From Harriotta raleighana (Eukaryota): DNA of 64,000 nucleotides. Below are positions 27,355 to 43,014 of the stretch, piece by piece. Position numbers and translations under genes: made by a program. Position 1 is the first letter of the stretch. Each line of letters begins with the position of its first letter. Where the stretch lies: positions 3,733,538 to 3,797,537 of the forward strand of contig JBNZDD010013730.1 of assembly GCA_050575255.1 (NCBI GenBank), read 5' to 3'. The notes under the pieces were generated by a model. It did no database searches and had not been told where the DNA came from. It saw nothing but the letters and a program-made list of their open reading frames with translations.

Positions 27355-27860
27355 AACAACAAAATTACATTTATAGAGCGCCTTTCACATCGGGAGGACG
27401 TTCCAAGGTGCTAAACAATTAGGCGGGACCCGAGCGGGGGAAAGGGTCGGGGTAGGGGCAGGGGGAAGGAAAGGGGGGAAGAGTTAGGAGCAGCAGAAGG
27501 CACGATCTAAGAGGAGGGTCTTGAGACCGGTCTTGAAGTAGGCAATGGAGGAATTGAGGCGAAGGGACTGCGGGATGTTGTTCCAGAGTGCAGGGGCAGA
27601 GAGGCTGAAAACTCGGCCACCGATGGTGGGGCGGGTCGGGCTGGGGACATGGAGCAAACCGGAGGCCACTGAACAGAGGGTGCAGGCAGGTTGATAGGGA
27701 GTCAGCAGGTCGGAGATAGGAAGGGGCAAGGCCATGAATGGCCTTGAAAATGAGGACGAGGATCTTGAACGCGATCCTGGGGAATGGAGAGCCAATGGGT
27801 GGGAGTCTGTGGAGCTTAGTGCAGGAGAACATAGGCTACAGAGATCTGGATGATCTGCAG
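27355..27860 (-). mobile_element. L2-clade LINE 3' end (ORF2 C-terminus + 3' UTR)
   Basis: RIAFKILVLIFKAIHGLAPSYL, then frameshift to GGRVFSLSAPALWNNIPQSLR...FKTGLKT; tail gaaaggcgctctataaatgtaattttgttg. Confidence 0.88.
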
Positions 27861-28190: not shown

Positions 28191-30019
28191 GTGAGGTTGA
28201 TATTCAAAGGGAAAATAACAAAGTACTTTGGTGGTGAGTCAGGGATATGTATAAATACAGTAAACGCCTAATAGCCAGTCAAATGCAAGGATTAAGATTA
28301 ATTAATGTCATTCTGAAGTTCAGAAAGAGATATTCTGCTGGTGTCCAGGTAAAAAAAAAACAGGCTTACATACTGAATCACGATTCCTTTGTGAAATGTT
28401 TGTATATAGTAAAGAGGTACAGAAATGCAAATTCTTTCTGCACACAAATGTAATGTTTTAATATCAGTTGGCAACGTGATCGAATGTAACAAGCAGAATC
28501 AAAGGACTGAAAAGGCCAAGATTGCAGACTGGAAGTGTCTGCTTTCCTTCCAGGGTTCAGACAGAGAACTGGTGAAAATCGCTTTAATAATAATAATAAT
28601 ATTCCTTGCATTTGATATAGCGCTTTTCACATGTTATCAACGCCTCAAAGCTTCGCGAGTACAGAAAGAAATGGTCGACATTTTAAGAGATTGGTAGTGA
28701 GTTAGTAGACCCGGAGAGCTTTGTCTTGCATTTATTCACGAGATGTTAGCTCTTTTTACTCGTTGAGTTTTTAAGTACAAAGTACAGTAACAACAGAATT
28801 TTTTTTTTACCCTCTACATTTAGCTAATTCTCTCATACACAAAAAAATTTTTGGGAGGGGAGGGGGCAGAAGAGGGGAGTTCGGTGGGGGTATTTAAGAG
28901 AGACTGCTTGCAAAATGCAAATTCTATCATTAGATGAAAGATCGCAGGCGTTTCAACAACAACAACACCCACCCACCCACAAAAAAATCACGTCAAAAGA
29001 AGTCGACTCCCCCCACCCCCACCCAACCCTGCACATGTGGATTAAACGAAGAACTGAACTGGATTTCCAATCTTGCCCATCCTCCCTCTTCCTATTAAAA
29101 AAACACTTTTACAAAGTGTTAAAGCAAACACCCCCCCCACCCCACACACACACACAAACAAACAACAACAACAACTCGCTGAAGCGACTCCCAAGAGTGA
29201 AGCTCAATCCATTGCAAGCAATCAGGTCAGAATCGCATCGCTCAAAATGGCTTCCAGCGGGGAGGAGGCGGAGGAGGAGGGGGGGGGGGGGGTGTGTGGG
29301 TTACTTAAAATTAAAATATTTGTTTAAAAAAAGGCCTAATTTTCCGAACTGCTGTTGCCTGGCGTTTGTCCCGCTTCCGACAACTCCTCTCTCTCTCTCT
29401 CCTACACCGGTGGGTTCGAACTGACGATGACACGGCCCAGACTCTCTCCCTCTCCCACACGAGAGAGCTCTTTTTTGTAATATATATATACATATATATA
29501 TATATACATATAAAAAATAATTGTAAAAAAAACCGCGGCCGCCGCCAACTCGGGCCTCCGGCCGCCATTTTATCGCGATCACTAACTCCTTCCAGCCAAG
29601 ACAGCGGCCACAAAGCGGCCTCTCCTCCTCCTCCTCTACCACATGCTTCTATTTTTCTCCCTTCTCCCAGCAGCATCACACTCTCCTCCCCACCCTCCCT
29701 CCCCCTCCAAGCCTATTCCAACTCGAGGCCTTCAAACTCGAGCCGAGACCCGGCCGGCCTCGCCTCTTANTATTTTTCTCCCTTCTCCCAGCAGCATCAC
29801 ACTCTCCTCCCCACCCTCCCCCTCCCTCCCTCCCCCTCCAAGCCTATTCCAACTCGAGGCCTTCAAACTCGAGCCGAGACCCGGCCGGCCTCGCCCCTTT
29901 CGGATCAAACCTACGAGGCCTCCCGCCCCAGCCAGCTCGTTGGGTCCGAGCCGATCGCCGGAAAAGGACTGCACAGCGGCCGATCATCGGGATGGGGGGG
30001 GGGGGGGGGGGGGGGGGGG

Positions 30020-30195: not shown

Positions 30196-30430
30196 GGGGG
30201 AGAGGGGAAGGGGGGGGGGGGGAGAGGGTAATGCATTCCCCAAGCATCGCCTGAGNGGGGGGGGGGGGGGGGGGGGGGGGGGAGGTGTGTGTGTGTGGAG
30301 AGGTGAAGGGGGGGGGGGAGAGGGTAATGCATTCCCCAAGCATCGCCTGAGCAATAAGACTGAAGGAGGACGAAGGGGGTTTTTGTTTAGCGGCGGCGGT
30401 AGCGCGGTGGGCCCGAGGCCCAGGTCCTAC

Positions 30431-34062: not shown

Positions 34063-36384
34063 TCACATAGACCCTCTGCTTAGAAACTGCTCTCTGATGT
34101 CATATGGTAATGTATTAAAGATGTCCTCTTCCACATCAAGTTGACTTCTCTTCAGATTTAGGCACTTCTCTAGTTCATGTGGTAATTCTTGCAATCTATT
34201 ACCTTTCAGTTCCAGTTGCCGGAGTTGAGTCAAATTTCCCACTTGGTGGGGAATGAAAAGTAAAAGGTTATGGGAAAGTATCAAAACTCTGAGTTTTGTG
34301 CATTGAAAAAGTTCCAAGGGTAATTCAGATACTTTGTTACTTTCAATATCAAAATAGTGAAGATCTTCTAATTGCTCTATTTCACTAGGAATATTTATAA
34401 TATTGTTATGGCCAACTTCCAAATGCCGTAATTTAATTAGTTTAAATAGACTTGGTGGAAGAACAGCAATGCTATTCTTGTTTAGATACAACATTTCCAG
34501 TGAGATGACCTTGGCAATATATGGAGGGATCTGTGTGATTTTATTATGCTGAAGCTTCAGTGTGATGAGCTTGCGAAGATACTGGAAACTGGCCAACTCT
34601 TCTACGGTCCTCAGATTGTTGTCTTTGAGGTCAAGTTCCTGAAGGTTACTCAAACCGAAAATAGCACTTGGGATTCGCTCCAGATCACAATTGTAAAGTT
34701 TTAGAACAGAGAGGCAAAGTAATTTCCTGAGATTGTTGAGAGTAGCCAACTTCTTGCCTTGATTATGAATTGAAAGGTGCTGAAGGTGATGGGCAACATC
34801 AGCAACCACTGCAGGTACTTTGGTGATGTTGGATTTCAGATGCAATGACTTAAGATGTTCTAATTCACAGAATGACTGCAAGACAATAGAGGATTTGTTA
34901 TCGATTAAAAAGTTGCCTTCCAGGTACAATTCATGAAGATTCTTCAGACTGTACATCCACTGTGGTATTTCATCAGCATTTGCAAACCGAACTCTTAAAA
35001 TTGTTATTGTATCTTTTAAAAATGCGAGTGCTCGATTTTCTACCTTTATGATACAATTGTACACCCACAGTTCTTGAAGTGATGTTTGCTGTGAGATTGC
35101 TGCACTAATCAACACATCCTTAATAAATTCCAGCTTTAGTACTTCCAGATTATAAATATCATAAACACTATTAGGAATACCAGGCATCATAAAAAGATGC
35201 AATTCAGTTTTGTTGTCTTCATTTGTAGCTATGCGCTGTTGAAGTTTTTCATGTGTCCACTCGTAACTCAGACTCAACTGGCGAAGTTTATTTTCACTAA
35301 CATCAGAAAGAAACACAGCAAATTTCCGAGCATACAGTTTGTCATATTGATCAATCAGATGCAACAGAAATGCAAAATCATTCTTCACATCTGGAATATC
35401 ATCAATCCCTGTTTCTTCCCTCACATAAGCAAATGAGTATTCCTTAAGTTTAAAGTAAAAGATCCAGTACAGTGTGTATGTACAGGTTATACAATAAATA
35501 AATATGACCACGACATACACTATGGATAACATTCTGAAAATCCTCCAAAGACCATGAATGCAGAAAAAATCTGTGAAGCCAGTAAAATGAATTTTATCTA
35601 TGCAATGGACAATATGTTTCATTTGAGGAATTAGAGTTACAAAATAGACGAGAATGATAATTGTTTGAACACAGCGTAAAATAGTTTGTCTTATGTACAT
35701 CAAATAAAGAATGTGGCCCTCTTCAGTGTGAAGACGAAACTTTTTGACTTTCTCAAACAATGCTTTTGCTTGTTCACCTTCCTTTTTGTCGAGAATTTTC
35801 ACAGAAGCATGTCCATAAACGCCACCTCCAACAGTTTTGAAGGTTTTTGAAGGCATCTTACAAATTGGTTCCTGGGCTTCATTTGGACATATTGTGTCAG
35901 AACTGCTTTCCTTTTGTCCTAACAAAAGAGTAGTTTCAGATGTTGGCTGAAGGCTCCCAGAGCATGACACAGATTCATTTGTTGCTAAAACAGTTCTCTG
36001 TGGAAACTGTAAGTCAGAATCCTCATAAACAGTTTCGGAAAGTGCCTTTGTAGTCCACTGAGAATCTAAACATTTCCCAAGGATTGAAATAAAATGTTCA
36101 ATTTTAGAACTTGTACCTGGAAATTTGAACCAGAAGTTGCTGCTCACTAAAAATACAAGTGTGTGAATGATAACTATATATGGGAAATATTTGGAGTACC
36201 ATTGAATTGCATGGTCATAGCAATATTGATCCATCAAATTATACTGTTCATGGTCCAAGCCAGTCTTAAATCCAGAACCTAAACTATTCAATTTTCGACC
36301 TATAAGAGCACTTTTGTTCCACTGCATTGAGATCATTGAGAATCCTTCTGGCACAGGGACGCAGATTATCTTGTCTGTTGATAT
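34063..36384 (-). CDS. Extra LRRC8-family paralogue, coding exon 2 (ECL1-TM4, intracellular loops, LRR domain); total 819 aa
   Basis: Acceptor aaatatag|ATA TCA ACA GAC AAG (ISTDKIICVP) is in frame with the 763-aa ORF. Motifs WYSKYFPY, SNFWFKFPGTSSKIEHF, LDKKEGEQAKALFEKVKKFRLH, DIPDVKNDFAF; LRR repeats; no stops or frameshifts. Confidence 0.92.
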   Translation of the reverse strand: MSTDKIICVPVPEGFSMISMQWNKSALIGRKLNSLGSGFKTGLDHEQYNLMDQYCYDHAIQWYSKYFPYIVIIHTLVFLVSSNFWFKFPGTSSKIEHFISILGKCLDSQWTTKALSETVYEDSDLQFPQRTVLATNESVSCSGSLQPTSETTLLLGQKESSSDTICPNEAQEPICKMPSKTFKTVGGGVYGHASVKILDKKEGEQAKALFEKVKKFRLHTEEGHILYLMYIRQTILRCVQTIIILVYFVTLIPQMKHIVHCIDKIHFTGFTDFFCIHGLWRIFRMLSIVYVVVIFIYCITCTYTLYWIFYFKLKEYSFAYVREETGIDDIPDVKNDFAFLLHLIDQYDKLYARKFAVFLSDVSENKLRQLSLSYEWTHEKLQQRIATNEDNKTELHLFMMPGIPNSVYDIYNLEVLKLEFIKDVLISAAISQQTSLQELWVYNCIIKVENRALAFLKDTITILRVRFANADEIPQWMYSLKNLHELYLEGNFLIDNKSSIVLQSFCELEHLKSLHLKSNITKVPAVVADVAHHLQHLSIHNQGKKLATLNNLRKLLCLSVLKLYNCDLERIPSAIFGLSNLQELDLKDNNLRTVEELASFQYLRKLITLKLQHNKITQIPPYIAKVISLEMLYLNKNSIAVLPPSLFKLIKLRHLEVGHNNIINIPSEIEQLEDLHYFDIESNKVSELPLELFQCTKLRVLILSHNLLLFIPHQVGNLTQLRQLELKGNRLQELPHELEKCLNLKRSQLDVEEDIFNTLPYDIREQFLSRGSM

Positions 36385-38776: not shown

Positions 38777-38914
38777 CTGCAGCGTCCCTCCAAACACTGC
38801 TATCATAAGCATCAAAACTGTTAAATAGTCTGTGAAAACATCCCACCATGGTTTTAAGATTTTAAATGTAGCCCGTTGGTCTCCAAAATACTTCAGTTCA
38901 ACCACTGAAAACAT
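38777..38914 (-). CDS. Extra LRRC8-family paralogue, coding exon 1 (46 codons, N-terminus + TM1)
   Basis: [46 protein letters not shown]. Acceptor ttttttag 2 nt before ATG. Donor CAG|gtaaac at 38776, phase 0. Confidence 0.92.
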
Positions 38915-39496
38915 AACTAAAAAATCAAAAAAAGGTATTACTAATTGCATGAATTGCTATCATTCATTTTATTATATAATGTGCCTTACTTATTCTAAAT
39001 CAAAATATGTCCTACTGGCTTATGAGAGCTATTACTAAAGCCATATTTGGAATATTGTATATGGTTTTGAACACTATTAGAAAATCTTTCATAATCAACA
39101 ATAAAATAATACTTGCATTTGATACAGAAACTAATCATGCTAAAATACAGAGGGAAGGTGCAAAGCTAAGATCGGGAGGTCCACTACACCAAACAGAAAC
39201 AGATAAGACCGATAAAATGTAAATAGTGATATGGAGGGATCACCTGAAAATCCAATTTTAGTTATTTTTAATGCTATCCAATAGCTGGCCATTCTTTCTG
39301 TTTCAGCTCTCCAGTATCTGATAGTTGTTCTCAAAGTACTTCTTTCAGCAATTGCCAAAGCAAGCGGTTCAGTGACTAACAATAACTGAAGAAAATAAGG
39401 CATGATAGTGACATCTGATTGATTGAAGCCACAAGCCAGGGAAAGCAGTGGGAGATTAATCAAATTTAAGGTGCAATGCCTGATGTATGCATTGTA

Positions 39497-39902
39497 AGCC
39501 TTGCAATTTGATTTAGGACCTTATGTCTTTTGAGACATCTCAAAGCACTTCACAGATTATAAAGTGAATGGACTGTATATTTTGTGTGCGAAATATGACA
39601 GCCATTTGCGCACTATAATTTATTTTTATTTATATAAATATAATATATAAATAAATAAATAAATAAAATAATGCCTCAAACAGTCGAGGATTGAATGACA
39701 AAATTATTGGCAAATTTTTTTTTNNNNNTTTTTTTTTTTAATGGTATTAATAACCCCGGAACAGCCAGATTCCTACTTACTGCTAAACATAGAGGTGTGT
39801 GGAGTAAGGAAACTTGTCCCATGTTTTGCCCTGCCCAATAGTCAAACCTAAGCTCTCTCGCTTGTTAAGCGAGTACTCTAACCCACTAAAATACAGGACT
39901 CC
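39497..39902 (-). mobile_element. Diverged SINE with internal AT-rich expansion and small gap
   Basis: ccttgcaatttgat...caaagcacttcacaga...ggagtaaggaaacttgtccc...gcgagtactctaac. Confidence 0.75.
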
Positions 39903-39974
39903 AGATAACAAATTTCTGACAGATTACAACCCCTTATTGATTCATCAGTGGTAGTCAATATTGGCAAAATTCAA

Positions 39975-41660
39975 CCTTGTTGCATCCTCACCTGCCCCAG
40001 CCTCACACCAGGTCCATCCTTGCCTGCCCCAGCCTCACACCTGGACCCATCCTCACCTGCCCCAGCCCCATACCAGGTCGTATCTTTGCCTGCTCCATCC
40101 TCACATAAGGTCCCATCCTCACCTGCCCCTGCATTGGCCCCATACCAGGTCCCATCATGGGCTGCCCGAGGCCAACACCAGGTCCCACCCTGGGCTGCCC
40201 CAGACCCACACCAGGTCCCATCCTGGGCTGCCCCAGCCCCACACCAGGTCCCATGCCTTGCTGCCCCAGCCCACCAGGTCCCATCCTTGACTGATCCAAC
40301 CTCACACCAAGTCCCATCCCTTGCTGCCCCAGCCCCACACCAGGTCCTATCCTTCCCTGATCCATCCCCATACCAGGTTCCATCCTTGGCAGCCCCATCC
40401 CCACATTAAGTCCCATTCTCCCCTGCCCCATCCCCACATTCGATCCCATCCCCTGCTGTCCTGGCCCAACACCAGCTCCCATTCTTGGCTGATCTAACCC
40501 CATACAAGATTCCATCCTCCCCTGCCCTAGCCCCACACCAGGACCCATCCTCGCCTGTTCCAGCCCCATATCAGGTCCCAGCCTCCCCTGCCCTAGCCCT
40601 GCACTAGGTCCCAACCCCTGAAGCCCTAGACCTGCACCGGGAACCATCCTCCCCTGCCCCAGGCTTGTATTAGGTCTCATCCCCTGCTGCCCAAGCCCCA
40701 CACCAGGATCCATCCTCCCCTGCCCTAGCCCTGCACCAGGCCGCATCTCTTGATGTCCAGGCTCCACGTCAAATCCAATCCTCCCAGGCCCCTGCCCCAC
40801 AGATCCCACCCTCCCCTGCTGCCGCGGACCCACACCAGCTCCTATCCTCCCCTGCTGCAGCCCCAATCCACGTCCTATCCTCGCCTGTTCCAGTGCAAAA
40901 CCAGATCCGACCCTCTCCTGCTCTTGCCTCAAACCAGTTCCCATCCTCCCACACCCCGGTCCCATTCCCTGCTGCCCCAGTCCCATTCCCTGCTGCCCTA
41001 GTCCCATCCCCTGATGCACCAGCCCCATCCCCTGCTGCCACAGTCCCGTCCCTTGCTGCCACAGTCCCGTCCCCTGCTGCCACAGTCCTATACCAGTTTC
41101 CATTCCCTGCTGCCTCAGTCCCATTTCCTGCTGCCCCAGTCCCATACCAGGTCCCATTCCCTGCTGTCTCAGTCCCATCTCCTGCTGCCCCAATCCTATA
41201 CCAGGTTGCATTCCCTGCTGCCTCAGTCCCATTTGCGGCTGCCCCAGTACTCTACCAGGTCCCAACCCCTGCTGCCCCAGTCCCCTACCAGGTCCCATCC
41301 CCTGCTGCCCCAGTCCCATCCCCTGCTGCCCCAGTCCCCTACCAGGTCCCATCTCCTGCTGCCCTGGGCCCACACAAGGTGCCTTCCTCGCCTGCCCTCG
41401 CCCCACTCCAGGTCCCATCCTCACCTGTCCCGGCCCTACACCAGATCCCTTCCACGGCTGCTGATCCAGACCAGGTCCCATTCTCTCCTGCCCCAGCCCA
41501 ATATTAGGTCCCATCCTCGGCTGCCCCAGTCCCTGCCCCATACCACGTCGCATCCTCGCCGGTTCCAGACCCACCCCGACGCCCATCCTCGCCTGCCACC
41601 GACCCACGCCAGAGCCCATCCTCGCCTGCCGCAGCCCCACACCGGGTCCCATCCTGGCCC
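39975..41660. repeat. Diverged minisatellite: 33-bp unit (minus strand GGGCAGGGGAGGATGGGACCTGGTGTGGGGCTG) with an internal block of 21-bp units at ~40960-41330
   Basis: Recurring cccatcctc(c/a/g)cctgccccagccccacaccaggt and ccctgctgccccagtcccat(c/t) on the + strand. Confidence 0.93.
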
Positions 41661-41784
41661 GTTCCTGCTCTCGCCCTCGCCCACAGCCTCGGCGTCGCTC
41701 TCGGGGAAGGTATCCACTCGAGCCTGACCTGACCGAAGGGCCCTCACCAACCTGCGACTTTTCTAATCCAGTTCGAAATAACAC
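40003..41784 (-). CDS. Putative Gly/Gln/Met/Pro/Arg-rich tandem-repeat protein or large coding exon (first in-frame ATG at 41652, 549 aa)
   Basis: 593 open codons across diverged 33-bp and 21-bp repeats. The other frames are broken. Lies directly downstream of a CpG island. ATG context gccaggATGg. No recognisable folded domain. Confidence 0.45.
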   Translation of the reverse strand: MLFRTGLEKSQVGEGPSVRSGSSGYLPRERRRGCGRGREQERARMGPGVGLRQARMGSGVGRWQARMGVGVGLEPARMRRGMGQGLGQPRMGPNIGLGQERMGPGLDQQPWKGSGVGPGQVRMGPGVGRGQARKAPCVGPGQQEMGPGRGLGQQGMGLGQQGMGPGRGLGQQGLGPGRVLGQPQMGLRQQGMQPGIGLGQQEMGLRQQGMGPGMGLGQQEMGLRQQGMETGIGLWQQGTGLWQQGTGLWQQGMGLVHQGMGLGQQGMGLGQQGMGPGCGRMGTGLRQEQERVGSGFALEQARIGRGLGLQQGRIGAGVGPRQQGRVGSVGQGPGRIGFDVEPGHQEMRPGAGLGQGRMDPGVGLGQQGMRPNTSLGQGRMVPGAGLGLQGLGPSAGLGQGRLGPDMGLEQARMGPGVGLGQGRMESCMGLDQPRMGAGVGPGQQGMGSNVGMGQGRMGLNVGMGLPRMEPGMGMDQGRIGPGVGLGQQGMGLGVRLDQSRMGPGGLGQQGMGPGVGLGQPRMGPGVGLGQPRVGPGVGLGQPMMGPGMGPMQGQVRMGPYVRMEQAKIRPGMGLGQVRMGPGVRLGQARMDLV

Positions 41785-41869
41785 TCACTTTCCTCTCCTG
41801 TTTATCATCTGACATGTTATATGGGGCTTAAGTTTCCTCTCCTAGCCTGCTATGACTAAGTCCTAGTTA

Positions 41870-42485
41870 AACGGTGGGGAGGGCTCAAACAGAAACAGGC
41901 TGAGGCCTAGCAGGTCCCACCACGCACCGTTGAACGGTCGAACTTTTTTTTCTCGCAAAACGGTCGCCGCTCGAGGGGACGTTACTGCACATGCGCAGCA
42001 ACTGACTGGCAGCGTGTGGTGGGCCGCCATCTTTCATGCTGGCAAAATGGCTGCTCTGGTTTGGCCTCGGGCGGGGGGGGGGGGGCTGGGAGTCCTCCCA
42101 CTCAGCAGCTCCTGTTCACCCTGCCAGCCCAAAGAAAGCGTAACGTGTGCGCATCGCTCCTTGCACTCTTTTTATCTCTTGAGATTCCCACGTGGTAGGC
42201 AAAATTGGTCACCGTTGCCGACGTCCAGAAATAATCAGGCGCCGATCAGCGAACCTGAATTAACGACCAACTTTGGTCGATGTGAGCGCCCTCCACGCCG
42301 GACAGCGTCTCAGAACGCTTCACATCCACCGATCCCGGGACCGACCCTTTTTTGGGAAAGAAACCAAATCAAGGCTTTCCCACTGGATTTGAAAGTTTTC
42401 CGGTTGGATTAAAAGGCCCCCCCCCCCCCCACCCGCACACCTACTTGCATGAATTTTGGCAGTTCATATAACTTGCCGCGCGGAT
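41870..42485. promoter_or_regulatory. CpG-island promoter upstream of the repeat ORF and the extra LRRC8 gene
   Basis: CpG-dense. NRF1-like TGCACATGCGCA at ~41986-41997; back-to-back YY1-type GCCGCCATCTT (~42023) and AAAATGGCTGC (~42044); GC box GGGCGGGG at ~42068. Confidence 0.72.
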
Positions 42486-42511
42486 GCAAGATGATTTTTC
42501 ATCCTGAAAAT

Positions 42512-42825
42512 GCAAAGTTACACATGTGAAAGCCGCCTTCCCAAGTCGGGATGACGTCCCAAGGGGACAGTGCGATCAGGGATTCGGACTCGAGCTCAGG
42601 GCTGGGATCAGGGAGGGTGGCTGAAGGATCGACCGAAGGAGGCAAGGGAGGGAGAGATGGGAATGTGGGATGGAGTTCCATAGAGTAGAGAAAGGCTTGA
42701 CGGTCTAACTACCAATGGTGGAGCAGGTCGGGCGGAGAACATGGAGCAAACAGACAGAGGTAGTGGATAGGTTGGTTATTAATAAGAGTCAGCGGGTTGC
42801 AGAGATAGGGAGGAGCAAGGCCTTA
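42512..42825 (-). mobile_element. L2 3' fragment abutting the CpG island
   Basis: gatgacgtcccaagg...ggagttccatagagtag...gatggtggagc. Confidence 0.6.
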
Positions 42826-43014
42826 AAAAAAAAACATATGAAATCACGTCAAGATTCTAGTTGGGTGACAAATTGTTAATATATTCTAATCGCTGTTTTT
42901 GATGGTCTGTAGATTCTTCCATCCTAGAAAAAATAATCTTAAGTGTTTGCAGGTTATATAGATGGTTTGAAAAGTAGGAACCAAAAACTGGTATGATTCA
43001 CTGACTATGAATTA

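Follow-up and report, generated by a model that had tools for sequence, protein, structure and literature searches.

A diverged 33-bp tandem array with a preserved reading frame, a candidate orphan coding sequence upstream of an LRRC8C-like gene in the chimaera Harriotta raleighana

A diverged G-rich tandem array in the genome of the chimaera Harriotta raleighana, with a CpG island upstream and the initial coding exon of an LRRC8C-like paralog downstream, keeps one reading frame open for 593 codons. Does this frame belong to a protein, or is it an intronic minisatellite that merely contains few stops? A sequence-only reading had proposed an undescribed protein or a large exon. The evidence on this question is set out below; all coordinates refer to the window, the whole stretch of 64,000 nucleotides that was analysed.

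The array and its surroundings

The open frame runs from stop to stop over 40003-41784 on the minus strand, the strand of the flanking genes, and all five other frames have stops within the array, as had been reported. Its first 44 codons are non-repeat and contain no ATG, so that the ATG-started ORF is 549 codons long, beginning at 41652 in a good start context (GCCAGG-ATG-G). The array itself (approximately 39983 to 41659, minus strand) is built of 33-bp units that read MGPGVGLGQ followed by A, Q or G and then by R or G, and that are about 20% diverged from their consensus. The 21-bp sub-array noted earlier is also present (40954-41088); its units (MGLGQQG) correspond to the 33-bp unit minus 12 bp, and together with higher-order units of 54 bp (33 + 21), which can be added to the earlier description, they make up a proline-poor segment on the minus strand at 40954-41364. 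In a matrix scan that is blind to frame, 41 of 41 units share one register, in line with the claim that the units keep frame. The sole uncompensated frameshift, again as claimed, is a 1-bp loss at about 40015 in the second-last unit (40003-40017, minus strand), which creates a TGA at 40005-40003. Without this loss the frame would extend by just 10 codons or so, to 39971.

The neighbouring genes on the minus strand are LRRC8D (48644-46116); the LRRC8C-like paralog, with a first coding exon at 38777-38916 (an acceptor, 2 nt and then the ATG at 38914 that begins MFSVVEL) and a large coding exon at 34063-36384; and ZNF326. The array was dropped as a candidate exon 1 of ZNF326, since that gene begins with a first exon of its own at about 30450.

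For the repeat ORF and for the first coding exon of the LRRC8C-like gene alike, the CpG island at 41251-42750 is the nearest one upstream, and it is a probable promoter. The earlier claim of a CpG promoter holds for the base composition (CpG observed/expected of 0.56-0.88 in 500-bp windows from 41251 to 43000), but the promoter role is inferred and the island is partly LINE2-like. Within it are what we take to be YY1-like sites at 42033 (minus) and 42044 (plus) and an NRF1-like site at 41996. A fragment at 42268-42347 (minus), presumably a LINE2-like 3' end, is a high-copy dispersed repeat (39 of the 40 matches listed are copies elsewhere that are 80-90% identical), and a second LINE2-like fragment at 42635-42822 (minus) gives a 67% match to a copy at 27535-27733 of the window. 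The island was also considered as a copy of the ZNF326 promoter, for which there was no match among the matches listed. The ZNF326 island itself (29640-29900 and 30250-30350) contains short near-exact duplications beside N runs that are probably assembly artefacts.

The array could in principle have arisen when part of some existing gene or mobile element was amplified, such as an hnRNP M-type repeat exon or a piece of LINE2. The RMG tripeptide recurs in the units, as it does in hnRNP M repeats, and a 17-mer of the unit exactly matches two LINE2-like copies. DNA and protein searches of the animal's own genome, however, place the array at this single locus, with one unrelated minisatellite as the sole other match, and no RRM or PF11532 segment is found in the ORF or in the 42 ORFs inspected, out of 90 listed for the interval separating the two LRRC8 genes. 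In addition, 19 independent LINE2-like copies each have 4-10 mismatches to the 17-mer, on which ground LINE2 was rejected as the source of the unit. An amplified fragment is thus a very improbable origin.

Openness of the frame against neutral expectation

The length of an ORF in a repeat of this kind is weak evidence of coding. Among 1500 simulated neutral arrays, some frame stayed open over 97% of the length in 1.2% of runs with indels and in 13% of runs without, and the probability of an open frame was 0.45-0.68 when a third of the changes was applied. A second GC-rich 33-bp minisatellite elsewhere in the genome (L027 1375-2145, the same as L068 2471-3142; G000 C13681), unrelated in sequence to the array at the LRRC8 locus and used as a control, has 20 copies that are 99% identical and five frames open for 246-320 aa. 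The caution that G-rich repeats are stop-poor therefore applies to ORF length as such.

It had also been suggested that much of the variation among units looks synonymous, and this is not borne out. Divergence is flat over codon positions 1, 2 and 3 (0.228, 0.206 and 0.215 in 41 units), which is largely the neutrality across positions that the sequence-only reading had itself named as speaking against coding. The synonymous share of changes is 0.223 versus 0.212 under neutrality (P 0.34, 41 units), and in a set of 39 units, from which two units with an internal indel were dropped, there are 70 synonymous changes versus 58.7 expected. In the same 39 units dN/dS is 0.73, compared with a neutral 0.92±0.12 (60 simulations, with rates estimated after five polymorphic columns had been set aside) and with 0.71 in a shifted frame. 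Amino acid replacements are not more conservative than neutral ones (P 0.61). As a coding signal, synonymous bias is weak to absent.

The main signal for coding, and a strong one, is the purging of frame-breaking changes. With a gap opening cost of -10, the array has 17 indels per approximately 350 substitutions; 16 of the 17 are multiples of 3, and the one frameshift lies at the very end of the array. Cheaper gap costs add further gaps that are not multiples of 3, and these compensate within about 20 nt. Under the same gap costs, 34 SINE copies show 89 frameshifting indels out of 107 per 920 substitutions (0.097 per substitution), and in 38 further tandem repeats drawn from 864 kb, a set that leaves out low-complexity and N-containing arrays, the count is 61 out of 68 per 357 substitutions (0.17). 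GC-rich tandem-repeat controls (15 arrays) give 18 frameshifts per 118 substitutions. Parsimony among the units requires 175 steps for 270 differences, while star-like shuffles need 198; most unit changes are therefore independent, and at least about 20 frameshifts (about 20-60) would be expected where one is seen. With just 9 expected, the probability of one or none is 0.001.

The depletion is confined to frameshifts, because in-frame indels occur at the control rate: when ten 12-bp losses are taken as one event, 7 in-frame events are left, or about 0.02 per substitution, equal to the rate in the controls (18/920 and 7/357). Stops are likewise missing from the array frame, with none found versus 5.4 expected (P 0.0025) or, on another estimate, 4.8 (P 0.007). 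The C of the Gln codon is invariant in 39 of 39 units and Gln is the best-kept codon, a conservation that the avoidance of TAG explains in part.

These counts bear directly on the view that the array never coded, being instead a minisatellite, located in the first LRRC8C-like intron, whose stop-poor G-rich unit and unit-sized turnover keep the frame open. A donor upstream of the array (41789) and an acceptor downstream of it (38916) make for a simple intronic reading, and the flat divergence over codon positions, the five open frames of the young 33-bp array and the 13% of indel-free neutral arrays that stay open agree with it. It does not account for one frameshift where about 20-60 are expected from the SINE and tandem-repeat controls, the GC-rich ones included, beside in-frame indels at the control rate; moreover, the young control array is 99% identical, versus about 80% here. 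We consider an array that was never translated to be unlikely.

Because frameshifts and stops have been purged, the array probably is, or long was, translated. The pattern is what would be expected of a translated sequence with loosely constrained residues, in which selection may weigh more heavily on frame and length than on the residues themselves. The proposal of an undescribed protein or large exon thus gains backing from the depletion of frameshifts and stops, but not from the synonymous argument first made for it. The purging shows selection during the history of the array, not present-day expression, and a former gene, translated while it diverged and now decaying or unexpressed with the 40015 frameshift as its first lesion, has to be weighed as well. 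Near-neutral missense change, the presence of one frameshift and the failure of our searches to find a protein record are consistent with such decay. On the other hand, the lone lesion lies in the last 3% of the array, where it costs about 10 codons and would be tolerable in a live gene, whereas a random lesion would usually hit the interior, and 549 codons are free of stops. A decayed gene appears fairly unlikely.

Candidate transcripts and product

Our preferred reading, to which we give a probability of roughly 0.55, is that of an orphan gene confined to this lineage, with the array as its coding region and with the CpG-island promoter of the LRRC8C-like gene as a shared promoter. Such a gene would have grown by tandem duplication of an 11-codon unit. 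A good donor (AAA/GTGAGT) follows base 41789; an approximate matrix scores it at 5.0 and the real donor of the LRRC8C-like gene at 3.5, and splicing at 41789 would take out the entire array as the first intron of that gene. Transcripts using this donor would yield the channel subunit, and transcripts skipping it would be translated from the ATG at 41652 into the repeat polymer. The donor is contained in a short upstream ORF of 23 aa (41744-41815, minus strand) that starts MSDDKQERK and whose frame is offset by one base from that of the array ORF; spliced at 41789, the short ORF matches the frame of the large LRRC8C-like exon, and it overlaps the normal start out of frame. The island also holds five upstream ATGs, a point against the preferred reading.

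Within the array, strong phase-0 donors (CAG/GTGAGG) occur on the minus strand at 40051-40123, after 40123 and 40057, and others occur after 41425 and 39992; on the approximate matrix these four inner donors are stronger than the one at 41789. The 40015 frameshift lies just downstream of the 40057 donor. No good acceptor for an upstream leader exon was found at the 5' end of the array. Given the placement of the donors and the lack of a 5' acceptor, the array would be first-exon or single-exon sequence, or else a wholly removed intron 1. Transcripts of the polymer may end at poly(A) signals borne by a SINE copy 3' of the ORF (39495-39916, minus strand; candidate hexamers at 39742, 39630 and 39624), 260-380 nt beyond the stop, although these hexamers are weak poly(A) evidence because they are located in an A/T-rich repeat. 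Alternatively, a late splice within the array would add a 7-residue tail. A poly(A) run at about 39750 was considered as the tail of a retrocopy and rejected, since the run sits within the SINE.

The predicted product (549 aa, 55.5 kDa) consists of 31% Gly, 14% Gln, 9.5% Met, 8.7% Leu, 8.7% Arg and 8% Pro, with 2.7% Ala, eight aromatics, three Lys (0.5%) and three Cys; its net charge is +28 and its pI 11.9. The maximum 19-residue hydropathy is 0.77, and the product has no signal peptide, membrane or hydrophobic segment. AlphaFold2 without an alignment gives a mean pLDDT of 42.8 and a single predicted helix (residues 171-224) in the proline-poor 7-residue units, to which we attach little weight in a Gly-rich chain.

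All homologue searches used are weak for low-complexity queries such as this one. The locus is undescribed in the largely open-access literature searched, including PMC6994961 and PMC6028502. Among 8000 protein candidates there was one match, a compositional one to an EF-hand protein with a short Gly/Gln repeat, and among 8000 longer candidates there was none and no fused form. A further protein search returned 27 matches, of which the 21 inspected are all unrelated periodic or compositional similarities. No orthologue was found in protein collections including Callorhinchus milii, again with searches that are weak for low-complexity queries, and there were no matches in Pfam, PDB or Rfam. The best Atlas similarities (0.84 and 0.87) fall under the 0.9 threshold for a lead. 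The product is absent from an exact protein look-up, as is the LRRC8D of the window.

The earlier comparison with hnRNP M and elastomeric proteins stands as a compositional resemblance, but not beyond it, as RRM, signal peptide, Lys domains and sequence match are all lacking. The repeats of hnRNP M are intracellular, rich in Gly, Met and Arg and carry the RMG tripeptide, features that the chimaera product shares. It differs in having neither an RRM nor the NLS domain of hnRNP M and in its periods of 11 and 7, and since Gln replaces Glu, the chain is cationic rather than charge-balanced. Involucrin and the SPRR/cornifin proteins are intracellular, are encoded by one coding exon, have Gln in a short repeat and turn over their units fast. 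The chimaera ORF shares a presumed single coding exon, the lack of a signal peptide, the Gln repeat and the fast unit turnover, and Atlas clusters bearing cornifin are weak leads (0.82-0.84, threshold 0.9). Unlike cornifin/SPRR, however, it has no Pfam Cornifin match, is rich in Gly, Met and Arg with only 3 Lys and 3 Cys, and is located beneath a CpG island at the LRRC8-ZNF326 locus.

With elastin-like Gly/Val/Pro polymers (PMC9470157) the product has in common its high Gly and Pro and its predicted disorder, along with 15 PG[VMAI]G motifs. It differs from elastin in that a signal peptide, Lys/Ala cross-link domains and any sequence match are lacking and aromatics are few; membership among elastin or secreted elastomeric proteins was rejected on hydropathy (maximum 0.77), Lys (0.5%) and Ala (2.7%). 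The antifreeze glycoprotein gene of gadids (PMC6410882) is a lineage-restricted de novo gene born from a repeat; its function is known, its product carries a signal peptide, and its descent from non-coding DNA is proven. The chimaera ORF, too, consists of tandem copies of one short unit and appears lineage-restricted. It has no signal peptide and its unit is 11 codons long, and the resemblance does not imply a non-coding origin for it.

If the array is coding, the product might work as a multivalent intracellular polymer that self-associates and binds RNA or polyanions in a condensate or scaffold, a tentative proposal argued from composition, to which we give slightly less than even odds. Each unit would supply one Met/Leu/Val-Gln-Arg set to a disordered cationic chain. 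Purged frameshifts beside near-neutral missense change would then be understandable, because activity would rest on length and composition. Low-complexity regions at high copy have been linked to self-associating assemblies of this kind (PMC9470157). The next most likely function, though a doubtful one, is a Gln-crosslinked structural role of the involucrin/SPRR kind, for which the well-kept Gln codon leaves room.

If expressed, the orphan gene would add to the vertebrate proteins a so far unrecorded one, about 550 residues long, in a lineage that evolves slowly, and would be a clean case of residues drifting while selection holds frame and length. It would bear on the origin of orphan genes born from repeats and on disordered polymers that work by composition alone; the locus does not yet change any mechanism. 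The count of frameshifts per substitution among units, set against local repeat controls, is a usable test for coding minisatellites that are masked in annotation.

The LRRC8C-like paralog and possible fused forms

The LRRC8C-like paralog is 86% identical to a Carcharodon protein named 'LRRC8C-like', and a tree built from 15 proteins places it as sister to five orthologues from sharks and rays (100/100), a group that then joins two amphibian proteins; this placement fits a holocephalan genome. The gene may encode a little-described further VRAC subunit. The repeat is absent from the nine elasmobranch and amphibian LRRC8C-like sequences inspected. The orthologues listed (15 of 46 cluster members) are 757-819 aa long, the full-length ones 799-819, save for one model fused to ZNF326. 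None has an N-terminal extension: five full-length elasmobranch sequences, with no holocephalan among them, start at or within 6 residues of MFSVVEL. Four elasmobranch forms of 757 aa are 62 residues short, and in the one inspected the first coding exon and TM1 are missing, pointing to a common exon-skipping or alternative-start transcript.

The array might instead be a large first coding exon spliced to the LRRC8C-like gene. Joined in silico to the first coding exon, phase-1 donors (40146, 40074 and 40041) are in frame and would place a disordered N-terminal tail of 500-540 aa on a full subunit; phase-0 donors (40123 and 40057) joined to 36384 are also in frame, and the resulting subunit would lack TM1. 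Points in favour are the position of the frameshift, shortly past these donors, and the parallel offered by the four elasmobranch 757-aa forms listed as lacking the first coding exon (one sequence inspected). Against such a fusion, the strongest inner donors, when joined in silico to the next acceptor (38916), run out of frame and reach a stop after 7 residues, and no fused form is seen among the 15 of 46 orthologues listed or the 8000 longer candidates. Moreover, an N-terminal GFP fusion abolishes VRAC current even though the protein reaches the membrane (PMC6120214), so that a subunit fused to the array would be only inhibitory or a scaffold. A polymer fused to the N terminus of the channel is possible but unattractive, and we regard a coding exon of the channel gene as distinctly unlikely.

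A more elaborate scheme, in our view a long shot, would combine these elements: a gene born from a minisatellite in the first intron of an LRRC8 paralog, in which one promoter would serve either a VRAC subunit or a condensate polymer, and late donors would graft the two into a silent or condensate-anchored VRAC component found in chimaeras only.

The term LRRC8F was not found in the literature searched. The extra LRRC8 clade is separate from LRRC8A, LRRC8C and LRRC8D, the other LRRC8 types that the tree covered, and databases name its members 'LRRC8C-like' or 'LRRC8A-like'.
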